A DNA stretch of 58,811 nt from a virus (IMGVR_UViG_3300001242_000005:1-58811), one strand, 5' to 3'. Positions 1 to 34,092 are shown, counted from the stretch's first letter. Notes: a model not told the origin generated them from the sequence alone. A program made the numbers and translations.

Positions 1-101
1 CCCCGCCGGTTACAGCGACCAGGACGGAGGTACTTGGCTGGCTGGCTTTTGAAGTCGGCAAAACCGGGTCTTTATCCCTGGATCATCCGCTGGCGGATTG
101 C
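1..101. repeat. Terminal direct repeat, left copy (circular assembly overlap)
   Basis: Identical to 58711-58811. Confidence 0.97.
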
Positions 102-184
102 GGCATTGAACATGCCGACATTGGCTATATTGAAATCAGGGAAGTGTAACGACTGAGGCCCAAAAAATTAAGGAGTGAAGGAAA

Positions 185-733
185 ATGATTATCGGAATAT
201 CGGGAAAAGCAGGTTGTGGAAAATCGACACTCGCCGAGATGCTGACAAAAAATCTTGGCGAACAGTGGATCCGCATGTCGCTCGGCGACGAAGTGAAGAA
301 GGAAGCCGCTGAAATGTTCAATTTCCCCCTTTGGATGGCCTACGACAGCGAAGCGAAAAAATGCGTTGTCTACGTCAAGGATGTCGACCGGAAGATGACC
401 ATTCGGGAAATCCTGCAGTACTGGGGCACGGATGTGCGGCGAAAAGAAGACCCGGATTATTGGACCAAAAAACTCCATGAAAATGTCCCGGCAGATAAAC
501 ACGTCATTATCGACGACATTCGCTTCGTCTCCGAGGTGGAGTTTGTCAGAAATCTCGGCGGCAAGGTTTTTCGCCTGACTGCGTACAACGGATATGATCC
601 ACCGGCAGCTGGCGCCGATCATGTCAGCGAGACCGAGTTGGATGGCTATGATTCTTTCGATGCCGTTTTTACCCCGGCGTTCGGAGAGCTTGGGTGGGTG
701 GCAGCGGTAATGGTCGCAAAGAGTATCATTTGA
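185..733 (+). CDS. Deoxynucleoside monophosphate kinase (phage dNMP kinase)
   Basis: P-loop GKAGCGKST, REILQYWGTDVRR, IIDDIRF and HVSETELD motifs; AAGGAG/GAAGGA upstream. Confidence 0.85.
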   Translation: MIIGISGKAGCGKSTLAEMLTKNLGEQWIRMSLGDEVKKEAAEMFNFPLWMAYDSEAKKCVVYVKDVDRKMTIREILQYWGTDVRRKEDPDYWTKKLHENVPADKHVIIDDIRFVSEVEFVRNLGGKVFRLTAYNGYDPPAAGADHVSETELDGYDSFDAVFTPAFGELGWVAAVMVAKSII

Positions 734-800
734 TGAAAGCAGATTATTGGCGATAGGAAACTAGAAGCAATCATCTGAAAATTCAAAAATGGAGTAAGCC

Positions 801-1709
801 ATGAGTCATTTTAGTGTGTTGGTGATAGGAGAAAACATCGAGCAGCAACTTGCTCCTTACCATGAATTTGAATGCACAGGGTGTAACGATGAATACGTAC
901 AGGATATCGATGTCACTGAAGAGTCTATCGAGTGGGGAACAGATAAGGAGACTGGTGAATTCTCTCTTGAAGAGGCGCTTGGATACCACGGACTTGACGA
1001 CAAGATCGTTGCCGATATCTCCGAGGTAGATACAAACGAGGCTCACAAATATGGGTACGCCATTGTCAAGGGTGGCAAGTTAATCAAGGCTGTCAACCGT
1101 ACCAATCCCAATAAACAATGGGACTGGTGGGTGGTAGGTGGGCGGTGGGCAGGTTACTGGCGTATGAAGGAAGGGGCTACAGGAAAGTTAGGCGAACGTT
1201 CTTTCCTTGGTTCGAATGCTGACAAAGGTACTGCTGATTCTGCACTAAAAAAAGACATAGACTTCGAATACATGATGGAGGCGGCGGGGTTAAAAGCTGG
1301 CTTGGTCTGGGACAAAATTCGCGCGGTCGTCTCTGAAGATGATTTTTCCACATTTGCTTCATGGGAAAAGATACGAGAGGCTCATAAGGGAGACATTGAT
1401 GCAGCCAGAACAGCGTACGGCGAGCAGTCTGCGGTCAAGAAATTCAAAACAATTGAAAACGTAGGTTTTTTTGACAAGGTGGAAAGATATTGCCTGACTC
1501 GCGACGAGTTCGTTCAGTCCGCCAAGGATAAAGCCATCTCCACCTTTGCTGTCGTAAAAGATGGTCAGTGGTATCAGAAGGGAGAAATGGGCTGGTGGGG
1601 TTGTGTCAGTGACGAAAAAGCCGGGTACGACTGGTGCGCTGAGTTTGCAAGCCTGATCGAAGGATTGCCTGAGGATACTCTTTTAACTGTGGTTGACTGT
1701 CACATTTGA
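801..1709 (+). CDS. Conserved phage hypothetical protein
   Basis: 302-aa ORF with GGAG SD; MSHFSVLVIG, NPNKQWDWWVVGGRW and VVDCHI pattern resembles phage early proteins. Confidence 0.75.
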   Translation: MSHFSVLVIGENIEQQLAPYHEFECTGCNDEYVQDIDVTEESIEWGTDKETGEFSLEEALGYHGLDDKIVADISEVDTNEAHKYGYAIVKGGKLIKAVNRTNPNKQWDWWVVGGRWAGYWRMKEGATGKLGERSFLGSNADKGTADSALKKDIDFEYMMEAAGLKAGLVWDKIRAVVSEDDFSTFASWEKIREAHKGDIDAARTAYGEQSAVKKFKTIENVGFFDKVERYCLTRDEFVQSAKDKAISTFAVVKDGQWYQKGEMGWWGCVSDEKAGYDWCAEFASLIEGLPEDTLLTVVDCHI

Positions 1710-1733
1710 CACCTGTCGGGTGTAGAGTTTGAT

Positions 1734-1766
1734 GTTAGGCACTATGCCCGATTACGAAATACAATC
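1734..1766 (+). repeat. Dispersed gene-boundary repeat, copy 1
   Basis: GTTAGGC-N9-GATTACGAAATACAATC; related copies at 48426, 49141 and 49665. Confidence 0.7.
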
Positions 1767-1785
1767 TCAATAAGGAATTTGATAT

Positions 1786-2136
1786 ATGGAATCGGACAAG
1801 AAATTACTGGCAACTGCAGCGATGGCAATTGGCCACACGCTTTATCCAGAATGGGATTGCGCGATAAAAGGGATACTCCTTGGAGCTGGCAAGGATGGAG
1901 ATCCGCAGGTTGTATGGAACCCGCTCGATGACGATGGTGATGCCCTCCGCCTCCTCGTTGCCATGCCGAGTCTGTGGTCATTATCATTGAGATTTGGAGC
2001 CCCGACCATTGAAATGGCTGTTTTGTGGGGGATGGGGGATGGTGTAAAAGTCAGAAAATTTGCCAGTGAAGGCACGGATCGTGCGGCAGTCATGAGACGT
2101 GCGATTGTGGAAGCAGCCGCAAGATGTTGTAAATGA
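1786..2136 (+). CDS. Phage hypothetical protein
   Basis: TAAGGA SD; WNPLDDDGDALRL and RRAIVEAAA motifs; last gene of the rightward early/middle operon. Confidence 0.7.
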   Translation: MESDKKLLATAAMAIGHTLYPEWDCAIKGILLGAGKDGDPQVVWNPLDDDGDALRLLVAMPSLWSLSLRFGAPTIEMAVLWGMGDGVKVRKFASEGTDRAAVMRRAIVEAAARCCK

Positions 2137-2170
2137 TGCTGCAAACAGATAACAACAAGGAATTAAGCAG

Positions 2171-2206
2171 TTCCGTATAACACCACAAACGTGGTGTTAT
2201 ACGGAA
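2171..2206. repeat. Perfect 16-bp inverted repeat
   Basis: TTCCGTATAACACCAC-AAAC-GTGGTGTTATACGGAA. Confidence 0.9.
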
Positions 2207-2217
2207 TGAACAATCTC

Positions 2218-2249
2218 CCCGGCTTCAAAAAAAGGCCGGGATTTTCTTT
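2218..2249 (+). terminator. Intrinsic terminator ending the early/middle operon
   Basis: CCCGGC...GCCGGG stem followed by ATTTTCTTT. Confidence 0.6.
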
Positions 2250-2292
2250 GTCCCGTTTTTTATAAGCAGAATGATCTGCTCATAACAATTAG

Positions 2293-2488
2293 TCATTTCG
2301 CAATTTTCGCGCCACACTCACGGAGCAGATCGGCGGCCTGGATCTCATTCAACCGGGGGCTTGCCCAAAACCGAGCGGCGACATCCCAGGTGGCAATCCG
2401 ACCGACGAGCGGCAACACCTGGAGTTTCTCCGCCAACTCGCGGCGCAAGAAAATAAATGCTGCTGGCGAAAAAAAAATAAATAGACAT
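2293..2488 (-). pseudogene. Frameshifted small gene or remnant
   Basis: ATG at 2488; a T9 tract puts it one base out of frame with RRELAEKLQVLPLVGRIATWDVAARFW...KIAK*; total length 196 = 65x3+1. Confidence 0.35.
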
Positions 2489-2662
2489 CTTCCTGACTCG
2501 TTGCATCACGTTGCTGTCAGGCATAAATAGGCAACAAAATTAGAAAACGTTTCCTCACTAGGAGTAATGTCCGCTAGTGTCCACTGTTTCGCCATTTTTT
2601 GCGTTGGCACTTCCGAAAATGCCGCGAATGTTTCACTTGAAGCAATAATAACCAGTACAATA

Positions 2663-2691
2663 TTGCAAAATATGCAACACTGCGGTATTAT
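2663..2691 (+). promoter_or_regulatory. Sigma70-type promoter for a probably leaderless small gene
   Basis: TTGCAA-17-TATTAT; ATG follows 7 nt later at 2699. Confidence 0.65.
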
Positions 2692-2698
2692 CCAGGGC

Positions 2699-2932
2699 AT
2701 GAATAAGGCGATTAAAACCCTGCAAGACCTCATCCCCCTTATCCCTCTCATTCCAGGCTACACTGGCGACGAAGGCGAAATCGTCATAACTATTGGACAA
2801 CACAAAGGATCGGCAAGAACGATCGACATCACATTTTCAACCGTCGAAAAGCTCACTCTGCAAGGCGGATCTCTCCAGCGGATCAGTAAAAAAAAGATGA
2901 GCATTGCCAGTATTGCAAATATTGCAACGTAA
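2699..2932 (+). CDS. 77-aa protein, candidate late-operon regulator
   Basis: MNKAIKTLQDL...GEIVITIGQHKGSARTIDITF; no SD; start lies at the predicted transcription start. Confidence 0.55.
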   Translation: MNKAIKTLQDLIPLIPLIPGYTGDEGEIVITIGQHKGSARTIDITFSTVEKLTLQGGSLQRISKKKMSIASIANIAT

Positions 2933-2934
2933 TA

Positions 2935-2963
2935 TTGCAGTTATCGAAACAATGAGATATAAT
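2935..2963 (+). promoter_or_regulatory. Late operon 1 promoter
   Basis: TTGCAG-17-TATAAT, preceded by repeated TATTGCA motifs. Confidence 0.75.
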
Positions 2964-2980
2964 CACATTAATTTATAGGA

Positions 2981-3014
2981 TTCCTGACGACTCCCTGAGT
3001 GTTCCGGGACTCAC
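2981..3014 (+). promoter_or_regulatory. Conserved leader hairpin, copy 1
   Basis: TTCC-N4-GACTCCC-N5-GTTCC-GGGACTCAC; repeated at 34006-34040. Confidence 0.7.
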
Positions 3015-3019
3015 GTTAT

Positions 3020-3064
3020 AGGCTCCAGTTGTGCATCGCGCATGGCTGGAGCCTTTTTTATTTT
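3020..3064 (+). terminator. Leader terminator upstream of the small terminase
   Basis: AGGCTCCAG...CTGGAGCCT stem followed by a long T run. Confidence 0.85.
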
Positions 3065-3078
3065 CAAGGGTTTAACTG

Positions 3079-3714
3079 ATGGCTGGGAAGAAAAAACTGA
3101 TTGACTGGGAGCGCATAGAAAAACCATTTCGGGCTGGCCGGATAAGCGTTTTGCAGATCGCTGCCGAGTACGAAAATGATACCGGCGTATCGATTTCCCA
3201 CACCGCTATCAACAAACATTTTGCCAAACTTGGAATCAAGCGCGACCTCAGCGAGAAGGTCCAGGCAAAGGCCGATTCCATGGTTTCAGCGGCCATGGTT
3301 TCAGGGCGCGTTTCAACTGAAACCATGGCGACCGATGCCGAGATCATAAACGCCGAAGCATTGAGCGTCGCGAACATTCAATTTTCCCATCGGCTGGACA
3401 TTCCGAAAAAGCGCGAACTGGTCGCCAAGCTGTTCAGCGAGATTGAAGCGCAAACCGATAACGCGGATTTTCTGGAGCAGGCCCGGCTTGCTTTGGGCCA
3501 GGGAGATTTGCCAGGTCTGGCAACAGCGCTGGAGAAAGCAACGTCTCTGCCGGCCAGGATCAAAGGTGTCTCCGATTTGGTCGGAGCGTATAAAACTTTG
3601 ATCAGTTTGGAGCGAGAGGCGTTTGGTATCACGGTAGGTGATAGTAAGCCGACAAAGGCAGCTGCTGGCGCACAGGAATTGTCCGAAGCGCTTATGGAGA
3701 TGATTAGATCGTGA
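3079..3714 (+). CDS. terS: Terminase small subunit
   Basis: N-terminal DWERIE..FRAG..S..QIA HTH, LEREAFGI motif, overlaps the large terminase. Confidence 0.75.
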   Translation: MAGKKKLIDWERIEKPFRAGRISVLQIAAEYENDTGVSISHTAINKHFAKLGIKRDLSEKVQAKADSMVSAAMVSGRVSTETMATDAEIINAEALSVANIQFSHRLDIPKKRELVAKLFSEIEAQTDNADFLEQARLALGQGDLPGLATALEKATSLPARIKGVSDLVGAYKTLISLEREAFGITVGDSKPTKAAAGAQELSEALMEMIRS

Positions 3715-5231
3715 CTACCAGGGAAGAGCGCAAAGCGATGTACTCGATCATCATCCAGGAGGCCAAGGCCCTTGGACCTGCTTTCCTGCGACAAGCGCTT
3801 CGGCAACTCGCTCTTAACGATCTCTTCTTTTTATTGGTGTATGTCTGCAAACGTAGCGATATCGACCGCGATTTTCTGTTCGACCGATGCCGAGAGGTTA
3901 ATGCGTCTCCCGATGGCATGCTCGACCTGTGGGCCAGGGAGCATTATAAATCCACAATCATCACGTTCGGGTTGACAATCCAGGACATCCTCCACAACCC
4001 AGAATTAACTGTCGGGATTTTTTCTCACACGAAACCAATAGCCAGGGCATTTCTCAGGCAGATAAAGTACGAGCTCGAAAACAACGACAGGCTCAAAGAC
4101 CTGTTCCCCGAGGTCTTGTATCAAAATCCTCGCCAAGAATCTAGCAACTGGTCTGAGGACAAGGGCATAACGGTAATCCGTAAAACCAACCCCAAGGAGG
4201 CCACTATCGAGGCCCATGGCCTGGTAGATGGACAACCAACAAGTAAGCATTTTGGTCTGCTTATATACGATGATGTTGTCACCAGAGAGTCGGTAACGTC
4301 GCCCGAGATGATTAATAAAACCACCGAAGCCTGGGAATTATCCCTCAACCTCGGATCCCACGGGGGGCGGGTTCGGTATATCGGTACTCGCTATCATTTC
4401 AACGATACCTGGGGCAAAATCATTTCTCGGAAAACGGCCGTAGCCCGAATCCATCCGGCAACTGATGACGGTAAACCAGAAGGCAAGCCGGTATTTCTCA
4501 CGAAGGAAGAACTGGTCAAAAAGCGTCGAGACATGGGTAGTTATGTGTTCGCATGCCAAATGTTACAAGACCCCAAAGCTGACGAGGCTCAAGGATTTAA
4601 ACAAGAGTGGCTTAGGTTTTGGGAGCCGGCGAATTGGCAAGAGATGAATAGATATATAGTCGTTGACCCTGCGAATGCTAAACGAAAAATGAACGACTAC
4701 ACATCTATGTGGGTCTTTGGCCTGGGCCGAGATAAAAAATACTACATCATTGACCTGATCCGTGACCGCCTCAACCTCACCGAGAGAACCAAGGCACTAT
4801 TCGACTTACATGAAATGTACGAACCAATCGGGGTTGGGTACGAGCATTACGGCATGCAGGCTGATATCCAGCACATAGAGTTTGTTCAAAATATCAAAAA
4901 TTACAGGTTTGATGTAACGCCACTTGGCGGGCAGATACCTAAAAACGACAGGATACGAGGGCTCATACCTCTTTTCGAGGAGGGCCGTATTTATATTCCA
5001 AAATCGTTGGTGAAGGTTACACTCGAATCGCGGGCCACTGACCTGATCGAAAAGTTTATAAATGATGAGTTTGTACCATTTCCGGTGTCAGCACATGATG
5101 ACATGCTCGATTGCATGGCGAGAATTCTTCATCCGGATTTGATGGTTGAGTTTCCTAAAGAGCAGAAGTCCCCAAAAATCCCATTATGGAAACAACGAAT
5201 TCGACAGGCTCAATCCTCACAGGCGGCATAA
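3711..5231 (+). CDS. terL: Terminase large subunit
   Basis: AREHYKST Walker A-like, LLIYDDVV Walker B, IGTRY, VVDPA and HDDMLD nuclease motifs. Confidence 0.93.
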   Translation: MTTREERKAMYSIIIQEAKALGPAFLRQALRQLALNDLFFLLVYVCKRSDIDRDFLFDRCREVNASPDGMLDLWAREHYKSTIITFGLTIQDILHNPELTVGIFSHTKPIARAFLRQIKYELENNDRLKDLFPEVLYQNPRQESSNWSEDKGITVIRKTNPKEATIEAHGLVDGQPTSKHFGLLIYDDVVTRESVTSPEMINKTTEAWELSLNLGSHGGRVRYIGTRYHFNDTWGKIISRKTAVARIHPATDDGKPEGKPVFLTKEELVKKRRDMGSYVFACQMLQDPKADEAQGFKQEWLRFWEPANWQEMNRYIVVDPANAKRKMNDYTSMWVFGLGRDKKYYIIDLIRDRLNLTERTKALFDLHEMYEPIGVGYEHYGMQADIQHIEFVQNIKNYRFDVTPLGGQIPKNDRIRGLIPLFEEGRIYIPKSLVKVTLESRATDLIEKFINDEFVPFPVSAHDDMLDCMARILHPDLMVEFPKEQKSPKIPLWKQRIRQAQSSQAA

Positions 5232-7340
5232 ATGGCAGACGATAATAAAACCACTGCAGCTGAGAATTGGGCCAGATACGATTACGGGGTTAGCCGCGGT
5301 CACCGGGAATATACCGAGACGGCAAAACTCCTTGAGGGGATGTATCTCGGGGGCGGGTATGACGGCAACGGGCGGCTGAAAGGTGGCGGGCAATGGACAC
5401 AGGCCGATTTGGATATTTTGAACGAAGAACGGCGCCCGGCCTACGAGTTCAACGAGATCAAACCGGCGCTCGATGCGGCTTTTGGCTACCAGATCAGCAA
5501 CCGGATGGATATTTCATTCAGACCGCGCTCGGGAGATGCGACGAAGGAAGCCGCCGAGGTCAGATCGAAAGTCGCGATGCAGATTGCCGACAACAACAAG
5601 TTGCCCTGGCTGGAAACCGATCTATTCAGCGACGGGCTTATCCAGCAGCGGGGTTATTACGATATCCGGATGTCGTTTGACGATTCGGTCGACGGAGAGG
5701 TCAAGATCCGCACAATTGATCCGCTCGACGGGATGCCCGACCCTGATGCACGGAGCTACGATCCGAATGAGTGGGGTGATTGGATCGAGACCCGCCTTCT
5801 CTCCCTGGATGATATTGAGCAGGATTACGGGATGGCAGCCCGCAGGATTGCCGAAACCGAAGCGCTTGGCACCGCCGATGAAACCAGATGGGGTGACGAT
5901 GGCGACGGAGAGTTGCGAAACACATTCGGGACCGAGGATCGATTCGATTCCTCTTTCGTCGTGGCCAAGGTCAAGAAACTTAGGGTGATCGATCGGCAGC
6001 ACTGGATCAGGAAAGTATCGGATGTTGCGATTCATCCGGGTGGAGATATCAGGCCGCTCTCCGGAGATGAGACACCGGAGCAACGGGCCGAGATGCTATC
6101 CAAGGGTGTGCTCATCACCAAGAGGAGAATCAAGCGGGTACGCTGGACCGTGACAACCATAGACGCCGTTCTCCATGACGACTGGAGCCCATACGACAGG
6201 TTGACGGTTGTGCCGTTCTTCCCGTATTTCCGGCGCGGCAAGAGTCGGGGAATGGTCGATAATGCGGTTGGTCCTCAATTGGCCCTGAATAAGAGCGCGA
6301 GCCAGACCGTCCATATCATCAACACCACGGCCAATAGCGGATGGCAGCTCGAAGAAGGCCAGCTCACCAACATGAGCACGACCGATTTGGGCGCATGGGG
6401 AGCAAAAACCGGTCTGGTTATTGAGCGCAAAAAAGGGACGGAACCACTCGAAAAGATCAACGCAAACCCGATGCCGCAGGGAATGGCAGAGCTTGTCACA
6501 CTCAGTTCCAAGATCCTGCAGGACGTAACTATCCCGGATGCAATGCGCGGAGTGGCGAACTTCGAGGAGTCAGGGGTTGCGGCCCAGAGCAGGCAGCACG
6601 CCAGTCAGCAGATACTTGCCGTTCCGCTCGACAACCTGGCCCGGACCAGGCACATGCTGGCAGGCTGGATCAATTACGCAATCAGCAAATACTATACGGC
6701 GGAACGGGTATTCAAGATTACCAAACAGAATCCTTTCACGGGCAAGGAAGAGCAGGAGGATTTGGTGATTAATGAGTTCGACCCGGGGACTGGCCAGTAT
6801 CTCAACGACATGACAGCCGGTGAATATGATGTAGTGGTTGCCGAGCAACCAATGCAGATCACGTTCGACAACAGCCAGTTTGAGCAAATCAGCAGTATGC
6901 GGAAAGACATGGGTGTCGCGATTCCTGACGCGGTGGTCATTAAGCATTCGAATTTGAGCGATAAGCACGAAATTATTACCGCCATGGAAGGTGCAGGGCA
7001 GCCACAACAACCGGTTGACCCGACTCTTGAGGCAAAGGCCCGGCTGATTGATGCACAGATCAGGAAGACCGACGCGGAAGCGATCAACAAGACTATTGAG
7101 GGGATGTTCTCGGGTTCAGAGACTGCGCAAAATATTGCGATGACTCCGCAGCTTGCGCCAGTAATGGATCAAATCCTCAAGAGTTCCGGGTGGGTTGATA
7201 AGGACGGCCCGCCGCTGGTCGACAACTCAGCGATTCAACCAATCCCTGAGAATCCGGGACCGGAAAACACGAATCCTTTGACGCCGACCAATCCGAGTGT
7301 GGGAATGAATGCCGGGATTGAAGGCGGGGATATTGTATGA
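5232..7340 (+). CDS. Portal protein (P22/N4-like podoviral type)
   Basis: 702 aa after terL; GQW..AD...L....RP...FNEI, PDPDA..YD..W and VPFFPYFRRG motifs. Confidence 0.88.
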   Translation: MADDNKTTAAENWARYDYGVSRGHREYTETAKLLEGMYLGGGYDGNGRLKGGGQWTQADLDILNEERRPAYEFNEIKPALDAAFGYQISNRMDISFRPRSGDATKEAAEVRSKVAMQIADNNKLPWLETDLFSDGLIQQRGYYDIRMSFDDSVDGEVKIRTIDPLDGMPDPDARSYDPNEWGDWIETRLLSLDDIEQDYGMAARRIAETEALGTADETRWGDDGDGELRNTFGTEDRFDSSFVVAKVKKLRVIDRQHWIRKVSDVAIHPGGDIRPLSGDETPEQRAEMLSKGVLITKRRIKRVRWTVTTIDAVLHDDWSPYDRLTVVPFFPYFRRGKSRGMVDNAVGPQLALNKSASQTVHIINTTANSGWQLEEGQLTNMSTTDLGAWGAKTGLVIERKKGTEPLEKINANPMPQGMAELVTLSSKILQDVTIPDAMRGVANFEESGVAAQSRQHASQQILAVPLDNLARTRHMLAGWINYAISKYYTAERVFKITKQNPFTGKEEQEDLVINEFDPGTGQYLNDMTAGEYDVVVAEQPMQITFDNSQFEQISSMRKDMGVAIPDAVVIKHSNLSDKHEIITAMEGAGQPQQPVDPTLEAKARLIDAQIRKTDAEAINKTIEGMFSGSETAQNIAMTPQLAPVMDQILKSSGWVDKDGPPLVDNSAIQPIPENPGPENTNPLTPTNPSVGMNAGIEGGDIV

Positions 7341-7510
7341 GCGACTGGTTCAAGGACGAAATGGAAGCTTTCATCATCCAGTGCATACACGATGGGCTCA
7401 CTGACGAGCAGATCGAGGAGGGTGTGAATATCGCCATGGCAGATCATGCCACCAGGTATCCATGCGTTGCTGAATGGACGGGAAGCCGGTACGAGATGGT
7501 GGGCGCGTGA
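7337..7510 (+). CDS. 57-aa hypothetical protein
   Basis: MSDWFKDEMEAF...MVGA*; ATGA and GTGA overlaps with both neighbours (below the ORF track cutoff). Confidence 0.55.
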   Translation: MSDWFKDEMEAFIIQCIHDGLTDEQIEEGVNIAMADHATRYPCVAEWTGSRYEMVGA

Positions 7511-7890
7511 AACAGAAGATCGTCGGCTCATATTATTTCGGTCCGGACCAGGTGGAAGTAGTTTTGCGCGAAGGAATTGGCGCAGAATATTATCACTTCC
7601 CCGAAAAAGGAAAAATCCCAAGGATAAAGATAGGGGCAGACTATGAAACGTTCGAAGGTCTACTTGAGGCTATTTTGCATGAAACCATAGAGTTTGCAAT
7701 AGACAGATACGGGTGCAGTTTTAAAGGCTCACGTATCCAGACAACTGAGCAGACACAATATCTGTTTGTCTTCAACCATACGGAGTTTTCAGAGATCAAC
7801 GCAAGATCGGCAGAGTTTCTTTCATTGTCCTTGAGTGACATCAAAAAGGCGTGGAAGAAGTGGAACAAAAAACAACAAGGAAACAAATAG
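7507..7890 (+). CDS. Hypothetical protein with a zincin-like HE motif
   Basis: GTG start overlapping the upstream stop; LLEAILHETIE. Confidence 0.6.
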   Translation: MKQKIVGSYYFGPDQVEVVLREGIGAEYYHFPEKGKIPRIKIGADYETFEGLLEAILHETIEFAIDRYGCSFKGSRIQTTEQTQYLFVFNHTEFSEINARSAEFLSLSLSDIKKAWKKWNKKQQGNK

Positions 7891-8856
7891 ATGCCAGACA
7901 TTAAAGACGAATTTAAGGACGAGTTCGAGGAATATATCGAACCTGTGGACGAAAAGATCCTGCGCGGCGATACCACGGATGACGATCAGGGCGACAACGA
8001 CGATGACGACGAAGCCTTGAGTGAGGTGGAAAAACTGCAGGCTGACACCGCTGCGGGGAAAGACCTCGAGGCCGATGCAGGAACCGCAGGCCAGGACGAT
8101 GGCAAGCAGCAGGCCGAGGCCAAGAAAGAAGAACGCTCTCAACATATCCCCCGCGAACGATTCGATGAGGTGAACACCAAGTTGAAAGAGGAGCGAGCGG
8201 CCAGGGAATCACTGGAAGCACGGCTTGCTGCTCTCGAAAAGCCATTTGTCCAGCCGGACGACGAAACGAGCCAAGGGGCCGGCGCCGCCAAGCCGGTCGA
8301 CCTGAAATCCATGCTCAAGGAGTACAACGCCGCCATCATGGACGGCGATGAAGATTTGGCCCTGGCTCTGGCTGAGACGATTGAAAACGAACGGTATCGC
8401 CGGGCGGAAGAGGCGGCGGAGAGGAAAACCGATGCCCGCCTTTCCGAGCGCGAGCAACAGAAAACGGTACAAGAGGCCCAGGCGACATTCACCAGGACTG
8501 TTGCCAGTATCATCTCTCAGTATCCGCAACTGGACGCCACCGCCGAAGGTCGCGACCAGGAGGCAATTGACGAGGTGGTTGAGTGGCGGGATTTCTATTA
8601 TGCCAAGAGCGGCGATCTGAGCGATGCGCTCACCAAGGCCGTCGGCAAGGTTATGAAAGGATTCACGCCGCCGGCAGCGCGAGAAGACAAGCGGAAAGCC
8701 GAGCAGGCCCGGATCAACGCCGACACCGCGAACCGTCAGCCGCCGCCGCTTTCCGGCACCGGCAACCGGTCGATGGATGTCAAGCCGAGGGTGCCGGACG
8801 CTCAAGACGAGTATGAAAAACTTCCCGAAAAAGAGCGGGAAAAACTGTTGAAGTAG
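7891..8856 (+). CDS. Scaffolding protein
   Basis: Acidic N-terminus, IPRERFDEVN motif, coiled coil, position before the capsid gene. Confidence 0.75.
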   Translation: MPDIKDEFKDEFEEYIEPVDEKILRGDTTDDDQGDNDDDDEALSEVEKLQADTAAGKDLEADAGTAGQDDGKQQAEAKKEERSQHIPRERFDEVNTKLKEERAARESLEARLAALEKPFVQPDDETSQGAGAAKPVDLKSMLKEYNAAIMDGDEDLALALAETIENERYRRAEEAAERKTDARLSEREQQKTVQEAQATFTRTVASIISQYPQLDATAEGRDQEAIDEVVEWRDFYYAKSGDLSDALTKAVGKVMKGFTPPAAREDKRKAEQARINADTANRQPPPLSGTGNRSMDVKPRVPDAQDEYEKLPEKEREKLLK

Positions 8857-8880
8857 GTCAAGACCCAAAAAGCAAGCAGC

Positions 8881-8995
8881 ACCTCGCCAATGGAAGAGGC
8901 GGTAAACCTTCCCGGACCCTTGGAACCGTATTCCATGATTCAGCCTGGTAAAGAGGCGGCAATCTTTATCCCGGTTGGCTCCCGAAGAAGCCAAA
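8881..8995 (+). promoter_or_regulatory. Structured 5' leader of the capsid gene
   Basis: Twin hairpins GGAAG-AGGCGGTAAAC-CTTCC and TAAAG-AGGCGGCAAT-CTTTA, plus TTGGCT..AGCCAA. Confidence 0.45.
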
Positions 8996-9034
8996 AACGA
9001 AGTTCTATTTTTGCAACCTTTAAGGAGTAATATC

Positions 9035-10150
9035 ATGGGATACACTGCTCTCGGAGCCATGCAGCCCGAGCAAAAAAAAGCATGGGTTAAGGAAAGTATT
9101 CGAGTTTTCAGGGAGAATTTCTTCTTTGAAAAAATGATGGGCAAGGGCGACAACTCTATCATTCAGTCCGTGAAAGAGTTGAAGCGCACCGAAAAAGGCG
9201 ACCGTGCCGGTATCGGTCTGGTTCAGGATATGCGCGGTACCGGTATCGTCGGCGACAATGATATCGATGGTCGTCGGGAAAGCCTGGAGTCTGATTGGGT
9301 GGAGATCCACACCGACCAGCTGCGGAACGGCACCACCTCGAAAGGCCGGGTCGATGATCAGCAGTCTGTTTTTGACTTCCGCACCGAGGCCCGCGACAAA
9401 CTGGCCAGATGGAGAGCCCAGCGCCAGGAGGAGTTGTTGATCCTCACCGCTTCGGGCATCTCTTACGCTTACAACTGCGACGGGTCCGCTCGGACTGTCG
9501 GCGCCCAGGACCCGCTCACTGACCTTGAGTTTGCCGCCGATGTCTCCGCACCTTCCAGCGGACGGCACTTCAACTTTGATTCCGGCGCAATCGCGGCCGG
9601 CAATACTGCAACCATCGCCTCAACCTCTGTGCCGGTTTACGGTATGATCGTTGATCTGATGGCCGAGGCGAAGACCAAGGGCATCAAACCCCTGAAGATC
9701 GGCGGCAAAGATTACTACGAGTATCTGTGCCACCCGAAGACTTATGCGCGGCTCAAAAAGGATGACGACTTCCGTAACGCCATCATCAACGCCATGCCGC
9801 GGGAAGCCAAGAACCATCCGATTTTCGACGGCTCCACGGTGACCATGGACGGCCTGATCATCCACACCAACACCAACTGTTTCAATACTCTCGGTCTTGC
9901 TTCCGGCAGCCGCTGGGGATCGGATGGCACAATCCACGGCACCCGCTCTCTGTTGATGGGCTGCCAGGCTCTTGCCCATGCCGACCTGTGGGGAAGCGCC
10001 GACTGGTACGAGGGCAAAGAAGACGACGACGCGAAGAATGTTATCAGTATCGCCATGTATATCGGCATGCTGAAACCGAAGTTCATTTCCCGTCGTGACA
10101 GCGATACCGAGCAGGATTTCGGTATTATGGCAATCAATCTGGCCCTGTAA
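9035..10150 (+). CDS. Major capsid protein (N4-gp56/DUF4043-like)
   Basis: TAAGGAG SD; MGKGDNSIIQ...EL, DQLRNG, FR..ARDKLA.W, HP.F.G and DFGI motifs. Confidence 0.88.
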   Translation: MGYTALGAMQPEQKKAWVKESIRVFRENFFFEKMMGKGDNSIIQSVKELKRTEKGDRAGIGLVQDMRGTGIVGDNDIDGRRESLESDWVEIHTDQLRNGTTSKGRVDDQQSVFDFRTEARDKLARWRAQRQEELLILTASGISYAYNCDGSARTVGAQDPLTDLEFAADVSAPSSGRHFNFDSGAIAAGNTATIASTSVPVYGMIVDLMAEAKTKGIKPLKIGGKDYYEYLCHPKTYARLKKDDDFRNAIINAMPREAKNHPIFDGSTVTMDGLIIHTNTNCFNTLGLASGSRWGSDGTIHGTRSLLMGCQALAHADLWGSADWYEGKEDDDAKNVISIAMYIGMLKPKFISRRDSDTEQDFGIMAINLAL

Positions 10151-10219
10151 TAATCACGCCCCTTCGGGGGCAATATTTCGACCAACACCCGGTAAGGGTC
10201 AATTTCAAGGAGTATCACA

Positions 10220-10618
10220 ATGACTATCACCAAAGATTGCAACCGGCAAGACCTGAAAATTGCCTGGGTCGATATCAATATGTCCGACCTGGTCAGCGGA
10301 ACGGCATCTGCTGTTGTTATGGACATCCCGCCCAATGCCGTTATCTGGGGCGGTCAACTCATCACCACCGAGGCGTGGAACTCTACCACCTCCGATGTTC
10401 TTGACGTAGGAGACGCGACCAGCGCCACCCGGTATTTGACGGATGGCGATATCCGCGCACTGGCCGCCAGGGTCCCGCTTGTTCCGACCGGGTTTCTCTC
10501 GACCGGCGAGGGGCTTAAAGTGTTGTGGACCAGCGGCGGCGGCACTCCGACGACCGGTAAGGTCCGCCTGGAAGTTGCCTATTACATTCAAGGAAGGGCT
10601 GACTCTACTCTCGGATAA
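10220..10618 (+). CDS. Capsid decoration or cement protein
   Basis: AAGGAG SD; IPPNAVI.GG..TTEAWN...LDVGD...RY motif; follows the capsid gene. Confidence 0.65.
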   Translation: MTITKDCNRQDLKIAWVDINMSDLVSGTASAVVMDIPPNAVIWGGQLITTEAWNSTTSDVLDVGDATSATRYLTDGDIRALAARVPLVPTGFLSTGEGLKVLWTSGGGTPTTGKVRLEVAYYIQGRADSTLG

Positions 10619-10646
10619 TCGGCCAAGGTAACGAAGGATAACGCGA

Positions 10647-10680
10647 AATTCCCCTCCCTGTTTGTCGGAGGGGAATTTTT
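10647..10680 (+). terminator. Intrinsic terminator after the head genes
   Basis: AAATTCCCCTCC...GGAGGGGAATTTTT. Confidence 0.7.
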
Positions 10681-10691
10681 GAAACCAAAAA

Positions 10692-11066
10692 ATGAGGATT
10701 CTCAACATGCAATTGAAATCATCCACCGGGAAGCCTGTGCAAGTTGCCTTGCTTTCCAGCCACACAATCGTAGTGCCACCGGAAGGCTGCGAAGTGCCGA
10801 AAATGTTCCTGCAGGAAGCCTTTAAAATGGGATGCGTCCCGATTGAGGTCGATATCGAGGAAGTCAAGGACGACGGCGCACTGACCGGAGCCCGCAAGAT
10901 TTCCGTGATCGTTGAGACCATCAAAAAGATGCTGAACGATGGTTGCAAACTGTCCGGAACCGGTCTCCCGAATCTGAAGGAAGTGAGCGCGGCCACTGGT
11001 TTTCATGTGACGAAAATCGAGGTCGCCGAGGCATGGAATATTATTGAGGCTGAGACGAAAGAATAA
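10692..11066 (+). CDS. Hypothetical virion-module protein
   Basis: ORF in operon; stop overlaps the next start. Confidence 0.6.
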   Translation: MRILNMQLKSSTGKPVQVALLSSHTIVVPPEGCEVPKMFLQEAFKMGCVPIEVDIEEVKDDGALTGARKISVIVETIKKMLNDGCKLSGTGLPNLKEVSAATGFHVTKIEVAEAWNIIEAETKE

Positions 11067-11710
11067 TGGCGACGGCCGAGGCTCTCATATCAGGCGTTAT
11101 CGGGATGGTTGGCAACAACCCGAACACAACATCGACTGTCGTTCTCCCTCTACTGAATGAGGGGTTGAGGATGATTACAGGCAGGCTGCTGTTGCCGGCC
11201 CTGGAGGCGAGCGCGGCCGTCAACACGACGCTATCCGCCAACATGTCGGCGCTTCCTGGTAATTATCAGCATGGGTTGTTTGCTGCTCAGGACGGGACGA
11301 GAAAACTGAGTGTCAAGAACTCCAAGGCGCAGATGATCGATGCTTTTGGCGATCTTACGCAGACCGGGGATGTTTCCGCCGTTGCAGTCGCCGAGTCAAA
11401 GCTCATGTACCTGCCAATTCCTGCGGCGGTAACAGCTCTGACTATCCATTATTATCGTCTCCCCGCTGTGCTGGTGGCCCTGGCTTCACCGGAAGGGTTT
11501 TCTCCGCAGACTGTTTATTATGGAGAGTTGGCAATGATGCATCATGCCGCTGCAAGGGTATGGGACGATGTTGAGGTTGGCGAAGATGGCGATAAAGTCA
11601 ACACACTCCACCATGAAAAGCAGCGCGAGGCCATGATAGAGCAAATCAGGCTGATTACCAAAGAGGGTGTTTCGCGGCCGAGTCCTCCTATCGTGAGTTG
11701 CTCATGGTAA
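11066..11710 (+). CDS. Head-tail adaptor-like protein
   Basis: LNEG, ALP.NY and YLPIP...LTIHYYRLP motifs; position. Confidence 0.6.
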   Translation: MATAEALISGVIGMVGNNPNTTSTVVLPLLNEGLRMITGRLLLPALEASAAVNTTLSANMSALPGNYQHGLFAAQDGTRKLSVKNSKAQMIDAFGDLTQTGDVSAVAVAESKLMYLPIPAAVTALTIHYYRLPAVLVALASPEGFSPQTVYYGELAMMHHAAARVWDDVEVGEDGDKVNTLHHEKQREAMIEQIRLITKEGVSRPSPPIVSCSW

Positions 11711-12624
11711 CGACCGCCATCATCAAAGGATCAGCAGGCTTAAACACCGAATCCGACCAGGCACGGACGTATTACGACAAGAATCCATCGCCGTATACCG
11801 GCAATCTCGGGCTGTCGTTCTTTTCCGCCTGCATGAATATCGATATCGACGACAAGATGAGGGTTTCACGGCGCAAAGGGATGATTAAGCGGGTGCCGGA
11901 AAACGCTCATTCTCTCCATGTGATCGATACTCAACACCTGCTGTTCGGTGCGGACGATGGGCTTTTCCTGCTTCTGGCTGGTTTCACCGGCTATTCTTTG
12001 ATAGCAAATGTCACCCCTGGTCGGGTTTCTGCTGTCACGGTCGATGGGGTTACTCGCTGGACCAATGGCGTGCAGAGAGGCAAGATCGTCGATGGCGTAA
12101 ATTACCCATGGGTAAAGGGCAATGTCATCTCCGATAATCTCACGCGGATCTTTTATGATCCGCCGGTTGGCAAATATTTGGCATACCACAACGCGCAAAT
12201 CCTCATAGGAGCCGGAAAAACAATCTGGAAATCCTGGCCGTACGGCCCGGATGTCTTTGCGCTTGACGACTACTATTCCCTTGAAAGTGACGTTTCAATG
12301 GTTCGTCCAGTGGGTGGCGGAATCTACATCGCCGATTCGGATCGGACGTTTTTTGTCAGTGGCGACGACTGGAAACCGGTTGATGACCATCCGGCCCTCG
12401 CATACGCCAGCACCGAAGCTGTAGGCACCATGATCGAAGGAAAATTTACGTCAGGCGGGAAAACACAGGTCGCGTTCTGGTTGACGAATGAAGGCGTGAT
12501 GTACGGCGATGCCACCGGCAATGTCTTGAATATCACGGAAGAAAGAATCGATTTACTCGGGCCATATTCGGAAGGGGCGATCCTTGTTGATGGCTCAACA
12601 CTCATAGCAAATTTCATCAAATAA
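11704..12624 (+). CDS. Tail tube or nozzle-like structural protein
   Basis: GLN...NIDIDD....RRKG N-terminus, beta-rich; position. Confidence 0.55.
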   Translation: MVTTAIIKGSAGLNTESDQARTYYDKNPSPYTGNLGLSFFSACMNIDIDDKMRVSRRKGMIKRVPENAHSLHVIDTQHLLFGADDGLFLLLAGFTGYSLIANVTPGRVSAVTVDGVTRWTNGVQRGKIVDGVNYPWVKGNVISDNLTRIFYDPPVGKYLAYHNAQILIGAGKTIWKSWPYGPDVFALDDYYSLESDVSMVRPVGGGIYIADSDRTFFVSGDDWKPVDDHPALAYASTEAVGTMIEGKFTSGGKTQVAFWLTNEGVMYGDATGNVLNITEERIDLLGPYSEGAILVDGSTLIANFIK

Positions 12625-12635
12625 GAGGCGCAACC

Positions 12636-13367
12636 ATGTTTAGATTCAGCACCGGATTACGGGATCTCGAGAATGGCCTTGCAAGGGCCACTGTCCATTT
12701 CCTCTATGTCGCGAACACAATCAGTTTCGATAACGCCACATCACAGATTCGCGATTCAGCAAGTCAGTTTTTGGCGAAGGGCGCCCTGATTGGGGATAAG
12801 GTCTATGGTTCAGGGACGGCGAACAACAACACGACATTCACTATCACCGATGCGACCGCTGGCGTGCTGACCGTCACTCCTGCGCCGACGACCGAAGCAG
12901 CTGGAACTATTTTCGGCTTGGCAGCGGCAACAGGTGGGAGCCGCCGCGATATCATGCGGAACGGTGTGCTTTATGAATACACCGGGCAGCAGCCGACATT
13001 GGCCGATAATGCGGTCGGCTCTGTAACGCTTCTTCGCAAATGGACCAAGGGCGGATTGGAGTTTGTTCCTGGCGCCGCGGCGAACGGCATCAACCTTGGT
13101 ATATCTTCCGGCGGCATTCTCGCAAAAGACACTTCGGAGATATGGATGGCCACCGGGCTCGCCAACGGAACATCGGGATGGATGCGATATTGTGGAAACG
13201 CAGCCGACGATGGACTCCTATCAACGACTCTCCCGCGGATCGACATGTCGTGTGGAAATTCTTCCAGCAGCGCCGACGCGAAAATGGGAACAACTGAGGT
13301 CGTGTTAGGTGATGTCTATTTCATGAACAATCTGCGGATCACATTCTCGTATCAGTATGGTGTCTAA
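12636..13367 (+). CDS. Tail-associated structural protein
   Basis: MFRFSTGLR, Y.G.QP..AD, GT.GW.R and RID motifs; Thr/Ala/Gly-rich. Confidence 0.6.
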   Translation: MFRFSTGLRDLENGLARATVHFLYVANTISFDNATSQIRDSASQFLAKGALIGDKVYGSGTANNNTTFTITDATAGVLTVTPAPTTEAAGTIFGLAAATGGSRRDIMRNGVLYEYTGQQPTLADNAVGSVTLLRKWTKGGLEFVPGAAANGINLGISSGGILAKDTSEIWMATGLANGTSGWMRYCGNAADDGLLSTTLPRIDMSCGNSSSSADAKMGTTEVVLGDVYFMNNLRITFSYQYGV

Positions 13368-13790
13368 ATGGGATCCTGGAAGGTTTACGCTTCGGCCATC
13401 CCGAAACTTAGCGACCTGATAACAGACTCGCTCAAGTGTGCTATTTTCACGGATGCCTACGTTCCGGCTATCACTGACGACAGTTACACGGCGCTTTCCG
13501 GCGAACTGGCGAACGGCAACGGCTATGCGACAGGCGGCGTTACTCTCGCCGGGGTGACCTTCACCGAGACGGCAGGAGTGTGGAAACTTGCATGCACCAA
13601 TTTCACGGCCGTAACCGCTTCAGGTGCGGATCTCACCTGTCGGAGCCTGGTTGTCTATAACGATACGGATGCTGGGAAACAACTCGTCGCCATGCGGTAT
13701 TTGAATGACGCCGTGAATGTGGTTATCCCGGACGGCACACCGCTTGATATTCAGAATCCCAATGGAATTTTTGTCACTGGAGGCTGGTAA
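13368..13790 (+). CDS. Minor tail or fibre protein
   Basis: GELANGNGYATGG.TL motif; NPNGIF C-terminus. Confidence 0.55.
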   Translation: MGSWKVYASAIPKLSDLITDSLKCAIFTDAYVPAITDDSYTALSGELANGNGYATGGVTLAGVTFTETAGVWKLACTNFTAVTASGADLTCRSLVVYNDTDAGKQLVAMRYLNDAVNVVIPDGTPLDIQNPNGIFVTGGW

Positions 13791-14458
13791 TGGCAAACAT
13801 AGAATATGCGGCCATCGATCTTATTGGCGGCACCGATGGTGCTATAGATAAGCTCGATGGCGTTGGCCTTGCAGACAAAGACTTTATCATAACCGCCGTC
13901 AAAGGTAACAAGGCTTTTTGCCATGTGCTTAACGCTACCTCTGGAGAATCGGAATCATCTCCTGAGAAAATTGCACCCGATACCAATCCAGGAACAAAGG
14001 TATGGGAGGAGGTCAGGTTCAACGGCGCACACCGGTCCCTGATCGTTCTCGGCTCGGATGCGGTCAACAACAATGCAGTTGCGAACACCCTGCAAGACGC
14101 AACCGGGCTGAGCTTCCCCATTAAGGCCGGGGTTGCGTATCGGTTTCACTTTCATCTCTGTGTGACATCGGCTTCGACCTCAACCGGTGCAAGGTATGTT
14201 CTGAGTGGTCCAGCGGCGCCAACTGCTTTTGCAGTATCGTACAGCCATCCGACGGCGGCCACCACTGCGACGATGGCAAACTCTGTTGACTACACCACTC
14301 CAGCATCTGCGGCAACGTCATCTCTATTAACCAATATCGTCTTGATTGACGGCTTTATAGTGCCAAGTGTCGATGGCACAATTCAGTTGCAGTTTGCCAG
14401 CGAGACAGCGAACGTTGCAATCACTATCAAGGCTGGCAGTACAATTGAGGTCTGGTAA
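13790..14458 (+). CDS. Tail fibre-like protein
   Basis: LIGGTDGAID.LDG N-terminus; GTIQLQFA..TA...TIKAGS C-terminal beta domain. Confidence 0.55.
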   Translation: MANIEYAAIDLIGGTDGAIDKLDGVGLADKDFIITAVKGNKAFCHVLNATSGESESSPEKIAPDTNPGTKVWEEVRFNGAHRSLIVLGSDAVNNNAVANTLQDATGLSFPIKAGVAYRFHFHLCVTSASTSTGARYVLSGPAAPTAFAVSYSHPTAATTATMANSVDYTTPASAATSSLLTNIVLIDGFIVPSVDGTIQLQFASETANVAITIKAGSTIEVW

Positions 14459-15135
14459 TGTCGATCGACGTTCTCTTCCTGGATAGCGACGTATCTTTTG
14501 TCGATACTGATGTAAGTTTCATCAAGTCGGCAACCTACACCGTCACAGGGCCGCTTGTTTCGGAGTGCGGGGTTGTGACGTTCTCGAATACAGGGGCCAC
14601 GGAAGAAACATACGAATCGGTCAATGTTGATGGAATAGCCCCAGCCATGACCGGCGATGCGGTCCATTACATCACGATAGACATAGCCGGGCTGTCTCCG
14701 GAACCACAAGGAGACGCTGAACTCGGGGTCGAGGTATCGGTTGAAGGATTTTCCCCGGTCATTACCGGGTCGGTCGACCTTGCGTTTGAGATTACCGGGA
14801 AGTCTCCGGCGATGATCGGGGAGTGCTATGTTGAGCAGATCATCTATGTAGATGTCGAAGGGACCGCCCCGGCAATAACCGGAGTTGTCGACCTTGCGTT
14901 TGACATTTCAGGAATTGCCCCGGCGATGACCGGCGATATCGTTCTTGAGAATTTCGACAATATTGTTGTCTCTGGATTTTCCCCGGCGATGACCGGTGAG
15001 GCGTTTATTGATGGCGGCAACGAGGTTGATGTGTGGGGATATTCCCCGGCCATCTCTGGAGAGTGTTTTATCTCTCCGACAGCATCGACCGACTTCACGG
15101 CAACCAGCGATGAAGTGATAAGGCATAGACGATGA
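14458..15135 (+). CDS. Acidic repeat protein (fibre-like)
   Basis: About 8 copies of Gx(A/S)P(A/V)(M/I)(T/S/I)G; DNA repeat CCCGGCGATGACCGG. Confidence 0.65.
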   Translation: MSIDVLFLDSDVSFVDTDVSFIKSATYTVTGPLVSECGVVTFSNTGATEETYESVNVDGIAPAMTGDAVHYITIDIAGLSPEPQGDAELGVEVSVEGFSPVITGSVDLAFEITGKSPAMIGECYVEQIIYVDVEGTAPAITGVVDLAFDISGIAPAMTGDIVLENFDNIVVSGFSPAMTGEAFIDGGNEVDVWGYSPAISGECFISPTASTDFTATSDEVIRHRR

Positions 15136-15623
15136 CGACAATCAAGATCAACCTCAGAAACGCGGCCATCACCCAGCACAGCAACGGTTTCACATCATAC
15201 GCCGCCTGGAACGGCCTGCAAATTGGAGCAGGTCCTGACGGCGTGTTTGTTCTCAATTACGGCCAGAAGGATATTTACACCACGACCAGCGACGAACGAA
15301 ACATTTCCGCGTGGTTCGAATTACCAAATACTCAGATGGGCAGCGATAAAGTTAAGCAGGGCCGAAGGCTCTACGTAGGAGGAGAATTCAATGGCTCGAT
15401 GACGGTCAAGGCGACCACGTCCGGGGAGACTGCGGTTGAAAATATTTACAATATAACTCCGCGAAATACGAATTACGTCCAACATACGATTCAGGTGCCG
15501 ATGGATCATACACAGAAAGGAGAATATTGGGGATTCACGGTTGCGAACGTTGCCGGTTCTGATTTCTCCCTCGATTTCATTGACGGAATATTTATCAACT
15601 GTGCGAGGCGGTTAGGCTTATGA
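15132..15623 (+). CDS. Tail structural protein
   Basis: ATGA-coupled; F.SYA, GAGPDGV.L, KGEYWGF and G.DF.LD motifs. Confidence 0.6.
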   Translation: MTTIKINLRNAAITQHSNGFTSYAAWNGLQIGAGPDGVFVLNYGQKDIYTTTSDERNISAWFELPNTQMGSDKVKQGRRLYVGGEFNGSMTVKATTSGETAVENIYNITPRNTNYVQHTIQVPMDHTQKGEYWGFTVANVAGSDFSLDFIDGIFINCARRLGL

Positions 15624-18484: not shown

Positions 18485-18485
18485 T

Positions 18486-33913: not shown

Positions 33914-33942
33914 TTGCAGCATCGACGGAAAAATAGTATCAT
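33914..33942 (+). promoter_or_regulatory. Late operon 2 promoter
   Basis: TTGCAG-17-TATCAT; same -35 hexamer as at 2935. Confidence 0.65.
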
Positions 33943-34005
33943 AGCCTCATATTATATAGTTTCACTGTAAAGTTTCACGGTTCAAATGAACCAGTAAAAG
34001 ACAGC

Positions 34006-34040
34006 TTCCACCGGACTCCCAATATGTTCGCGGGACTCAC
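34006..34040 (+). promoter_or_regulatory. Conserved leader hairpin, copy 2
   Basis: TTCC-N4-GACTCCC-N5-GTTCGC-GGGACTCAC. Confidence 0.7.
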
Positions 34041-34048
34041 CGGAATCG

Positions 34049-34092
34049 GCCTGGCCTCTTCATCTCACGAAGACGCCAGGCTTTTTTATTTT
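34049..34092 (+). terminator. Leader terminator of late operon 2
   Basis: GCCTGGC.TCTTC...GAAGA.GCCAGGC followed by TTTTTTATTTT. Confidence 0.85.

Follow-up and report, generated by a model that had tools for sequence, protein, structure and literature searches.

A conserved hairpin motif beside a strong terminator heads both late operons of an uncultured temperate phage: a candidate antitermination element

Timing of late gene expression by read-through of a terminator is a textbook principle and, to our knowledge, very few molecular solutions for it are known: Q, N, put, and the plasmid system conAn. The boxB of nut is a short stem with a pentaloop, has a boxA next to it and works with an arginine-rich N protein. 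The put RNA acts in cis by binding the zinc-binding domain of the beta-prime subunit. In the BglG/SacY-RAT and ANTAR/NasR systems, read-through is decided by a leader hairpin to which a protein binds just before an intrinsic terminator; this hairpin shares sequence with the 5ʹ arm of the terminator, and the two folds are mutually exclusive. The put elements of phage HK022 are described in PMC9378689 as RNAs of ~70 nt with two stem-loops, which need no protein, act over 10 kb or more and belong to early operons. For plasmid pLS20, PMC8191782 describes conAn2 as a large RNA that antiterminates alone and ConAn1 as adding processivity, both being efficient only in cis, and PMC10325885 describes stems of 15 bp as making a terminator resistant to processive antitermination in the same system.

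Here we analyzed the two late-operon leaders of a virus record of 58,811 bp (IMGVR_UViG_3300001242_000005), the whole of which is called the window. The record is complete, with terminal repeats, and its ends are bridged by one metagenome contig. The sequencing runs containing it are DNA metagenomes from groundwater and soil, and where contigs from four of these DNA runs covered 2200-3700, they contained no variant letters. The phage is temperate, with genes for an integrase and a CI-like repressor. Its rightward early operon codes for Rha/ANT, a DnaD-like loader, a cytosine methylase and a dNMP kinase; besides the integrase, two more genes of the tyrosine recombinase family (49724-50344 and 57519-58373) are located there. 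In late operon 1, the small terminase subunit (TerS) is followed by the large terminase, portal, major head protein and other virion genes, with the gene of a giant polyvalent protein as the last. Late operon 2 continues from its first gene with a fibre-like protein and then a GH108 endolysin (40021-40722). No phage RNA polymerase was found in the gene scans, and the giant gene product was the polyvalent protein; therefore, the host polymerase and host-type terminators are the relevant machinery. The features are listed in Table 1.

Table 1. Coordinates of the leader elements, genes and repeats in the window and of the corresponding repeats in the second phage, G001.
Feature	Position	Strand	Details
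Integrase	41897-43012	-	from ORF family scans
CI-like repressor	42957-43748	-	from ORF family scans
Rightward early operon	~43.9 kb, across record end, to 2136	+	last gene 1786-2136
Early-operon end, two overlapping terminator-like hairpins	2218-2255	+	stems 2218-2240 and 2237-2255, each with T-rich tail
Small-gene promoter-like site	2663-2691	+	TTGCAA-17-TATTAT; ends 7 nt before ATG
Small gene, 77 aa	2699-2932	+	directly upstream of leader 1; start 2699 chosen by homology
TTGC-N7-GCAA palindromes, window	2663-2677, 2904-2918, 2913-2927		AT-rich spacers; first overlaps small-gene promoter
TTGC-N7-GCAA palindromes, G001	8506-8520, 8746-8760		same two relative places
Late promoter 1 (putative)	2935-2963	+	TTGCAG-17-TATAAT; -35 2935-2940, -10 2958-2963; inferred start ~2970
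Hairpin copy 1	2981-3018	+	UUCC flank; outer stem 2986-2989/3014-3017; internal loop AC/CUCA; inner stem 2992-2995/3006-3009; 10-nt apical loop; 54.9 bits
Intrinsic terminator T1	3020-3064	+	15-bp stem 3020-3054, 5-nt loop, T6-A-T4 tract
Late operon 1	3079-33875	+	~31 kb
Small terminase subunit (TerS)	3079-3714	+	first gene of late operon 1; from family scans
Polyvalent protein, 4508 aa	20349-33875	+	domains AAA_34 + Helicase_C_4 (Strawberry-notch type), InPase, ART-PolyVal
Late promoter 2 (putative)	33914-33942	+	TTGCAG-17-TATCAT; -35 33914-33919, -10 33937-33942; inferred start ~33949
Hairpin copy 2	34006-34044	+	outer stem 34011-34014/34040-34043; internal loop AC/CUCA; inner stem 34017-34020/34032-34035; 11-nt apical loop; 53.7 bits
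Intrinsic terminator T2	34048-34092	+	8+5-bp stem, one internal mismatch, T6-A-T4 tract
First gene of late operon 2, 97 aa	34105-34398	+	no family match

The initial annotation had described both late operons as starting with promoter hexamers, a shared motif, a terminator and a common tail, and both stretches agreed with this description. The order at each operon is promoter-like hexamers, hairpin, strong terminator and first late gene. In the two late promoters of the window, TTGCAG is followed by ATCGA. This -35 hexamer matches TTGACA at three of six positions, and a simple consensus scan omitted promoter 1 and listed promoter 2 only as TTTGCA-18-TATCAT with 9/12 matches. Judged from their hexamers, the late promoters are plausible sigma-70-like promoters, not strong ones by consensus. 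At the aligned places, the second phage that carries these leaders, G001, has TTGTTA-17-TATACT in leader 1 and TTGTCA-17-TATCAT in leader 2. The inferred lengths of the leader RNAs in the window are ~95 nt for leader 1 and ~145 nt for leader 2, and the leader folds compared with those of shuffled sequences gave z values of -4.1 to -4.6. Leader 2 (33934-33992) also contains three copies of a word like ATAGTATCAT at 33934, 33955 and 33970, the first of which includes the -10 hexamer, and a perfect palindrome, GGTTCA-AA-TGAACC, at 33979-33992. Leader 2 of G001 has one copy of the ATAGTATCAT-like word and no palindrome, which accounts for the difference in length.

T1 was rank 1 among the 30 terminator-like sites listed for 1-20000. 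T2, the stem of which has an internal mismatch, was found by folding and was omitted by the simple terminator scan. The only other clear terminator-like site on the plus strand in three scans was the early-operon end at 2218-2255, and no comparably strong terminator was seen in these scans within the 31 kb of operon 1. As had been annotated, the tail T6-A-T4-CA(A/G)GGG is common to both leaders and runs into the ribosome-binding site. The distance from the T-tract to the start codon, about 11-14 nt (14 at 3079 and 12 at 34105), holds the ribosome-binding site, and by inspection no promoter was found after T1 or T2 or embedded in the terminators, with no room for one before the start codons. 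With 12-14 nt between T-tract and start codon, the late genes are therefore reachable only through the terminators.

Both leaders contain the motif TTCC-N4-GACTCCC-N5-GTTC-N1-2-GGGACTCAC (2981-3014 and 34006-34040), which includes direct repeats of GACTC. Its 20-base core had exactly two matches in the 58.8-kb genome, both on the plus strand; in 100 dinucleotide-preserving shuffles the mean count was 0.00 and the largest count 0. No further strong copy of the hairpin motif or of its complement was found in the genome. The motif is real, occurs beyond chance and is conserved in a second phage.

These data can also be read without any switch. T1 and T2 would end the upstream units, namely the small gene and the 31-kb operon 1, and the promoters would make stable short RNAs in which the hairpin serves stability, processing or terminator efficiency; the late genes would then be expressed by a constant low leak or by another route. 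Each terminator does sit after an upstream gene (T1 begins 88 nt past the stop at 2932 and T2 173 nt past the stop at 33875), the leaders resemble small-RNA genes in their compactness, strong folding and conservation, and long stems suit insulating terminators as these are described in PMC10325885. This explanation, however, leaves the late genes without an expression route. The gap from each terminator to the start codon is too short to hold a promoter. Supply of terminase, head and lysis proteins by leak through the two strongest terminators is implausible, and the genome offers a small RNA no further strong copy or complement of the motif as a target. We consider this explanation unlikely.

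For relatives of the leaders, we searched phage records, IMG/VR, JGI metagenome contigs and one genome per prokaryote species. The element was detected in one other phage only, G001, together with its fragment G002 and the metagenome contig of G001. The window and G001 share ~11 detectable protein pairs, mostly with 20-43% identity, and most genes have no counterpart. Identity is 29% for TerS, 29% for the integrase and 43%, in parts, for the polyvalent protein, of which the G001 version has 3290 aa. Even so, the leader architecture recurs in this very diverged phage, both leaders being present as islands of conservation. Outside the giant gene, blastn gave only two matches. One (2750-3064, 75%) covers the small gene and leader 1, and the other (34030-34102, 90.5%, 74 nt) takes in the 3ʹ half of hairpin 2 and continues over T2 and the ribosome-binding site. 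Compared column by column, the leader 1 sequences of the two phages have 88% identity. Such islands at two separate loci in diverged phages indicate selection on the hairpin and terminator jointly.

Comparison of the four copies, two from each phage, gave a common structure of a 4-bp outer stem, an asymmetric internal loop and a 4-7-bp inner stem, with the terminator 3-4 nt further on. The outer stem is GACG/CGUU in both versions of copy 1, CCGG/CCGG in copy 2 of the window and CCAG/CUGG in copy 2 of G001. In the internal loop, 2 nt (AC or CC) are opposite to 4-5 nt (CUCA, CUCAC or CUUA). The inner stem UCCC/GGGA is extended to UCCUGCC/GGCAGGA in G001 copy 2 through complementary insertions, and UGUUC of the apical loop is present in three of the four copies and lost in the fourth. 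From the sequences, four features make up the shared core: UCC flank, outer stem, internal loop and inner-stem base. The pairing of GACUCCC with GGGACUC through a C-C mismatch, which had been proposed at first, is possible in three copies; it is impossible in G001 copy 2, where the G-C, A-U and C-C of its lower part are lost.

RNAalifold on a hand-made structural alignment returned the outer stem, internal loop and inner stem. In the alignment fitted by a covariance model, 92.5% of the cells pair and four of the eight pairs change on both sides, compared with 6-58% pairing when the 3ʹ partners were slid as a control; this alignment has five rows, one of them doubtful (an antisense match in G001), and leans towards the model. 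The covariation is based on four copies, two of them nearly identical, from two phage lineages, so that the statistics are thin. A model built from three copies detected the fourth only with filters off, at 10.5 bits. Single-sequence minimum-energy folds of three of the four copies prefer pairing of the upstream UCC(U) with GGGA, and such pairing may be an alternative conformation of the hairpin as predicted by folding. The covariance-model search that the initial annotation had proposed returned the known copies as its only strong matches, at 49-55 bits. The antisense match, located in the giant gene of G001 (L014 14213-14260 on the minus strand, equal to G001 34213-34260 on the minus strand; 16.7 bits, E 0.015-0.08), has flanks very like those of copy 2, but neither a promoter nor a terminator adjoins it and the window lacks a counterpart, and we regarded it as probably due to chance.

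The same comparison bears on a function at the level of DNA, in which the motif would be a packaging, replication or recombination signal recognized either as a duplex or as extruded DNA. Copy 1 directly precedes the small terminase gene and the motif has its GACTC direct repeats, as might suit such a signal. The second copy, however, heads the operon of fibre and lysis genes, both copies are on the sense strand between promoter and terminator, and the stems covary. Moreover, the motif is nearly the same in the two phages in spite of the divergence of TerS. A signal of this kind is highly improbable, and we infer that the element acts as RNA.

The position of the hairpin was informative as well. 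From the inferred start to the hairpin there are ~16 nt in leader 1, ~62 nt in leader 2 of the window and ~36 nt in leader 2 of G001, whereas 3-4 nt separate the hairpin from the terminator stem in each of the four leaders. With the first distance variable and the second fixed, the hairpin belongs functionally with the terminator, not with the promoter. In this it differs from Q binding elements and sigma-dependent pause sites, which are tied to promoters. Inspection of the leaders revealed no segment that could pair with an arm of T1 or of T2, and a simple attenuator with alternative folds is therefore unlikely. This also separates the leaders from the RAT and ANTAR/NasR systems, because the hairpin and terminator of the window do not overlap and no alternative pairing of the arms was found by inspection.

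Searches beyond G001 gave no further copy of the element. At the DNA level, both leader regions were compared with 50,697 phage records by megablast and blastn, with no match. TerS relatives in IMG/VR were found at six loci, and the leader was absent in all five that were inspected. The exact motif occurred in two IMG/VR records, both of them from the second phage. A looser pattern gave at least 103 stretches in IMG/VR, and among the 40 that folded best the element was found only in the two leaders of G001. With a tighter pattern, 79 stretches were obtained from metagenome contigs, four of which were true and came from the window's own contig and that of G001. The same tighter pattern in 32 million genome contigs gave 24 stretches from many phyla, which were judged from their titles to be chance matches. 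The L127 group was rejected as a relative, since it represents an unrelated gene resembling that of a small RNA: at the metagenome locus L127 3080-3300, as also in L149 and L194, a promoter close to consensus precedes a structured RNA (~170 nt) and a strong terminator, all between divergent genes, and only the loose pattern had matched it. The whole window had no match in Rfam at the gathering thresholds, and 9 kb around three leaders gave one match at E up to 5, which was unrelated and away from the leaders. The leader element belongs to no described RNA or protein family.

No Q-, N- or NusG-like gene had been recognized at first, and indeed none of these families was returned from Pfam and/or PHROG for 46 ORFs of the window; KOW families were likewise absent from the ORFs scanned, which separates the window from systems based on a NusG paralogue (RfaH/ops and LoaP) as far as the phage's own ORFs are concerned. 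A very diverged Q-like fold among the phage proteins is possible, and the fold searches gave no significant match of any kind. The element had been called an uncharacterized cis element. Its lack of an Rfam match agrees with that name, which may however be incomplete, because a conserved gene of 77 aa directly upstream is a candidate for a factor acting in trans.

The 77-aa protein is 69% identical in G001 and is the only intact protein with more than 60% identity between the two phages, compared with 29% for TerS just downstream. The other match above 60% is a remnant of a G001 gene: 49 codons at 2293-2439 on the minus strand are 63% identical to a 149-aa minus-strand gene that is whole in G001 (6897-7346). 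A 349-aa minus-strand ORF of G001 (7390-8439) has no counterpart in the window. In IMG/VR the small protein was found in G001/G002 only, and the family member P0009 was not found there. The small protein was also not found in the genome contigs, nor in the phage records by tblastn, and a protein atlas search gave no usable match. A profile search of 1.84 billion representatives returned seven further small members, all metagenomic and from contigs of 0.9-10 kb, and one spurious repeat protein. One source lists the homologue P0003 as a hypothetical protein on a ~60.6-kb contig of a metagenome-assembled genome named 'Geobacter sp.'; this is the only hint of a host, and it rests on binning.

In the family alignment, Pro-Gly, Gly, Arg and Leu positions are invariant, and a stretch close to the C-terminus is basic. 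The AlphaFold model of the 77-aa protein (pLDDT 77.6) consists of a helix, three long strands and a helix. Fold searches with this model returned nothing significant, with Foldseek E values of at least 0.3 and VIA Z scores of at most 4.7, and levivirus coat proteins and Pur-alpha/PC4-type chains, which appeared as weak matches (E 0.3-1.6 or Z ~3), were discarded. The protein belongs to no Pfam or PHROG family, and ten family members had no relevant Pfam match at E up to 10. A KOW identity, suggested by non-significant similarity of the family profile to archaeal eL14 (E 0.08), had no support from Pfam and was dropped.

The small gene has a promoter-like site of its own. In G001 the corresponding site is TTGCAT-17-TAAAAT, which ends 6 nt before the ATG, with no Shine-Dalgarno-like sequence (L013 8529-8543). 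Because the -10-like hexamer ends only 6-7 nt before the ATG, the mRNA of the small gene is probably leaderless in both phages. Palindromes of the form TTGC-N7-GCAA occur seven times in the window against 1.7 expected, and three of the seven are around the small gene. Those at 2904-2918 and 2913-2927 fall within the final codons of this gene and precede the inferred late start by ~50 and 59 bp. The palindromes may be an operator for some regulator or a by-product of the conserved I-A-N-x-A-T tail of the protein. They are not obviously CI sites, since the immunity region has different repeats, and they would equally fit a DNA-binding role of the 77-aa protein.

A DNA-binding role would be in line with loading of the type known for Q, in which DNA near the late promoters would be bound, at a sigma-dependent pause, by a Q analogue that then travels with the polymerase, and the hairpin would be only a pause or accessory signal; the 77-aa protein might be this analogue. 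The gene order is that of lambda Q and pRʹ-qut-tRʹ, where a gene of regulator size is directly upstream of the late promoter, and a strong intrinsic terminator closes a short leader ahead of the late genes for packaging, head, tail and lysis; a temperate lifestyle with an integrase and a CI-like repressor is a further likeness. In addition, both late promoters of the window have TTGCAG followed by ATCGA, the palindromes upstream of leader 1 are at the same relative place in G001, and very diverged Q21-like proteins exist, one of which is described in the BaGTA preprint (10.1101/2024.11.20.624540). A promoter-proximal pause element may be present, in that -10-like hexamers can be read near each inferred start, but these are conserved neither in place nor in sequence among the four leaders. 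Against such loading, the promoter-proximal sequence is not common to all four leaders. Both leader-2 promoters are without TTGC-N7-GCAA palindromes, the distance from promoter to element differs by tens of nucleotides, and the complementary insertions in the G001 copy point to a folded strand instead of a duplex site. The window differs from lambda also in having two late operons with one copy of the element each, a candidate protein of only 77 aa, no match to a Q family among the 46 ORFs and, as a weak negative, no Q protein in the fold searches; its conserved element adjoins the terminator as a hairpin, where lambda has a DNA site at the promoter. Loading of this type is very unlikely here.

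The lambda N/nut system offers another likeness, as a small and partly basic phage protein would read a hairpin in nascent RNA and suppress termination from two sites at the heads of two operons. The window element, however, is on late operons and abuts the terminator, while nut is on early operons. Unlike boxB, its hairpin is built of an outer and an inner stem separated by an asymmetric internal loop and capped by a loop of 10-20 nt, and neither an N family match (46 ORFs) nor an Rfam match was obtained.

The put elements suggest that RNA may act alone, in which case the hairpin would bind the polymerase that made it and render it resistant to terminators without any phage protein, and timing would be set at the promoters. 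The window has two related RNA elements downstream of promoters at the heads of long operons, as are putL and putR, which are described in PMC9378689 as antiterminating from nascent RNA. Its hairpin has irregularities in the internal loop as in put stems, and no known family of antiterminator proteins was found. On the other hand, read-through that occurs automatically would make the adjacent terminators idle, yet T1 and T2 are among the best-conserved DNA between the phages. Transcripts coming from upstream carry the hairpin as well, so that the terminators could not insulate either. Each leader has a single hairpin (33-53 nt) that is separated by 3-4 nt from a conserved terminator, and a conserved protein gene adjoins leader 1, compared with ~70 nt in two stem-loops for put in the description of PMC9378689; there is no Rfam match. 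Action by the RNA alone is quite unlikely.

The layout of conAn, as given in PMC8191782, is similar in that a small protein gene and then an RNA element are at the start of a very long operon bearing terminators. In the window, however, the second copy of the RNA is 31 kb away from the gene, and the protein would need to act in trans, against the restriction to cis of conAn. The conAn systems are from Gram-positive plasmids while the phage here is uncultured, and the two were compared by layout, with sequence compared only through the Pfam/PHROG scans.

We favor regulated read-through of the leader terminators by an RNA hairpin and a phage factor, and give about an even chance to this proposal, in which the two leaders would time late gene expression. 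As a general reading of these sequences, an antitermination element is reasonable. The host RNA polymerase would start at the sigma-70-like promoter, make a short leader and halt at the long-stemmed intrinsic terminator about 11-14 nt before the first late gene, and the late genes would be made only upon read-through of this terminator. Read-through would depend on the conserved hairpin 3-4 nt before the terminator stem, through its outer stem, asymmetric internal loop and inner-stem base. A factor made by the phage would bind the hairpin as it leaves the polymerase, and the complex would block folding or action of the next hairpin, that of the terminator. We infer that termination is efficient and read-through regulated; by analogy with the pLS20 terminators, T1 with its 15-bp stem may be hard to override.

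The likeliest factor would be the 77-aa protein, which may be expressed from its own promoter directly upstream of leader 1. It is the best candidate on account of the place of its gene, its basic tail and its conservation together with the site, although its action on the hairpin is proposed only tentatively. The complete scheme is somewhat more doubtful than that. It would be a two-part module in which a protein of ~75 aa, with a fold new among antiterminators and made from a leaderless transcript, binds a bulged hairpin and stops adjacent long-stemmed terminators from acting, and in which the gene, its site and a second, free-standing site travel jointly between otherwise unrelated phages. 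The switch so proposed works like a known kind, with an RNA site and a protein that are outside the described families.

Should the antitermination reading fail, the leaders would still be two clean examples of conserved promoter-proximal terminators. If it is true, a phage of a groundwater community would provide a further solution to the timing of late genes, in which an RNA site placed directly against the terminator is read by a tiny protein. The 77-aa gene, the 40-nt site and the terminator would form a compact and portable switch, which could be used to study how the emergence of one hairpin blocks the next at the RNA exit channel.
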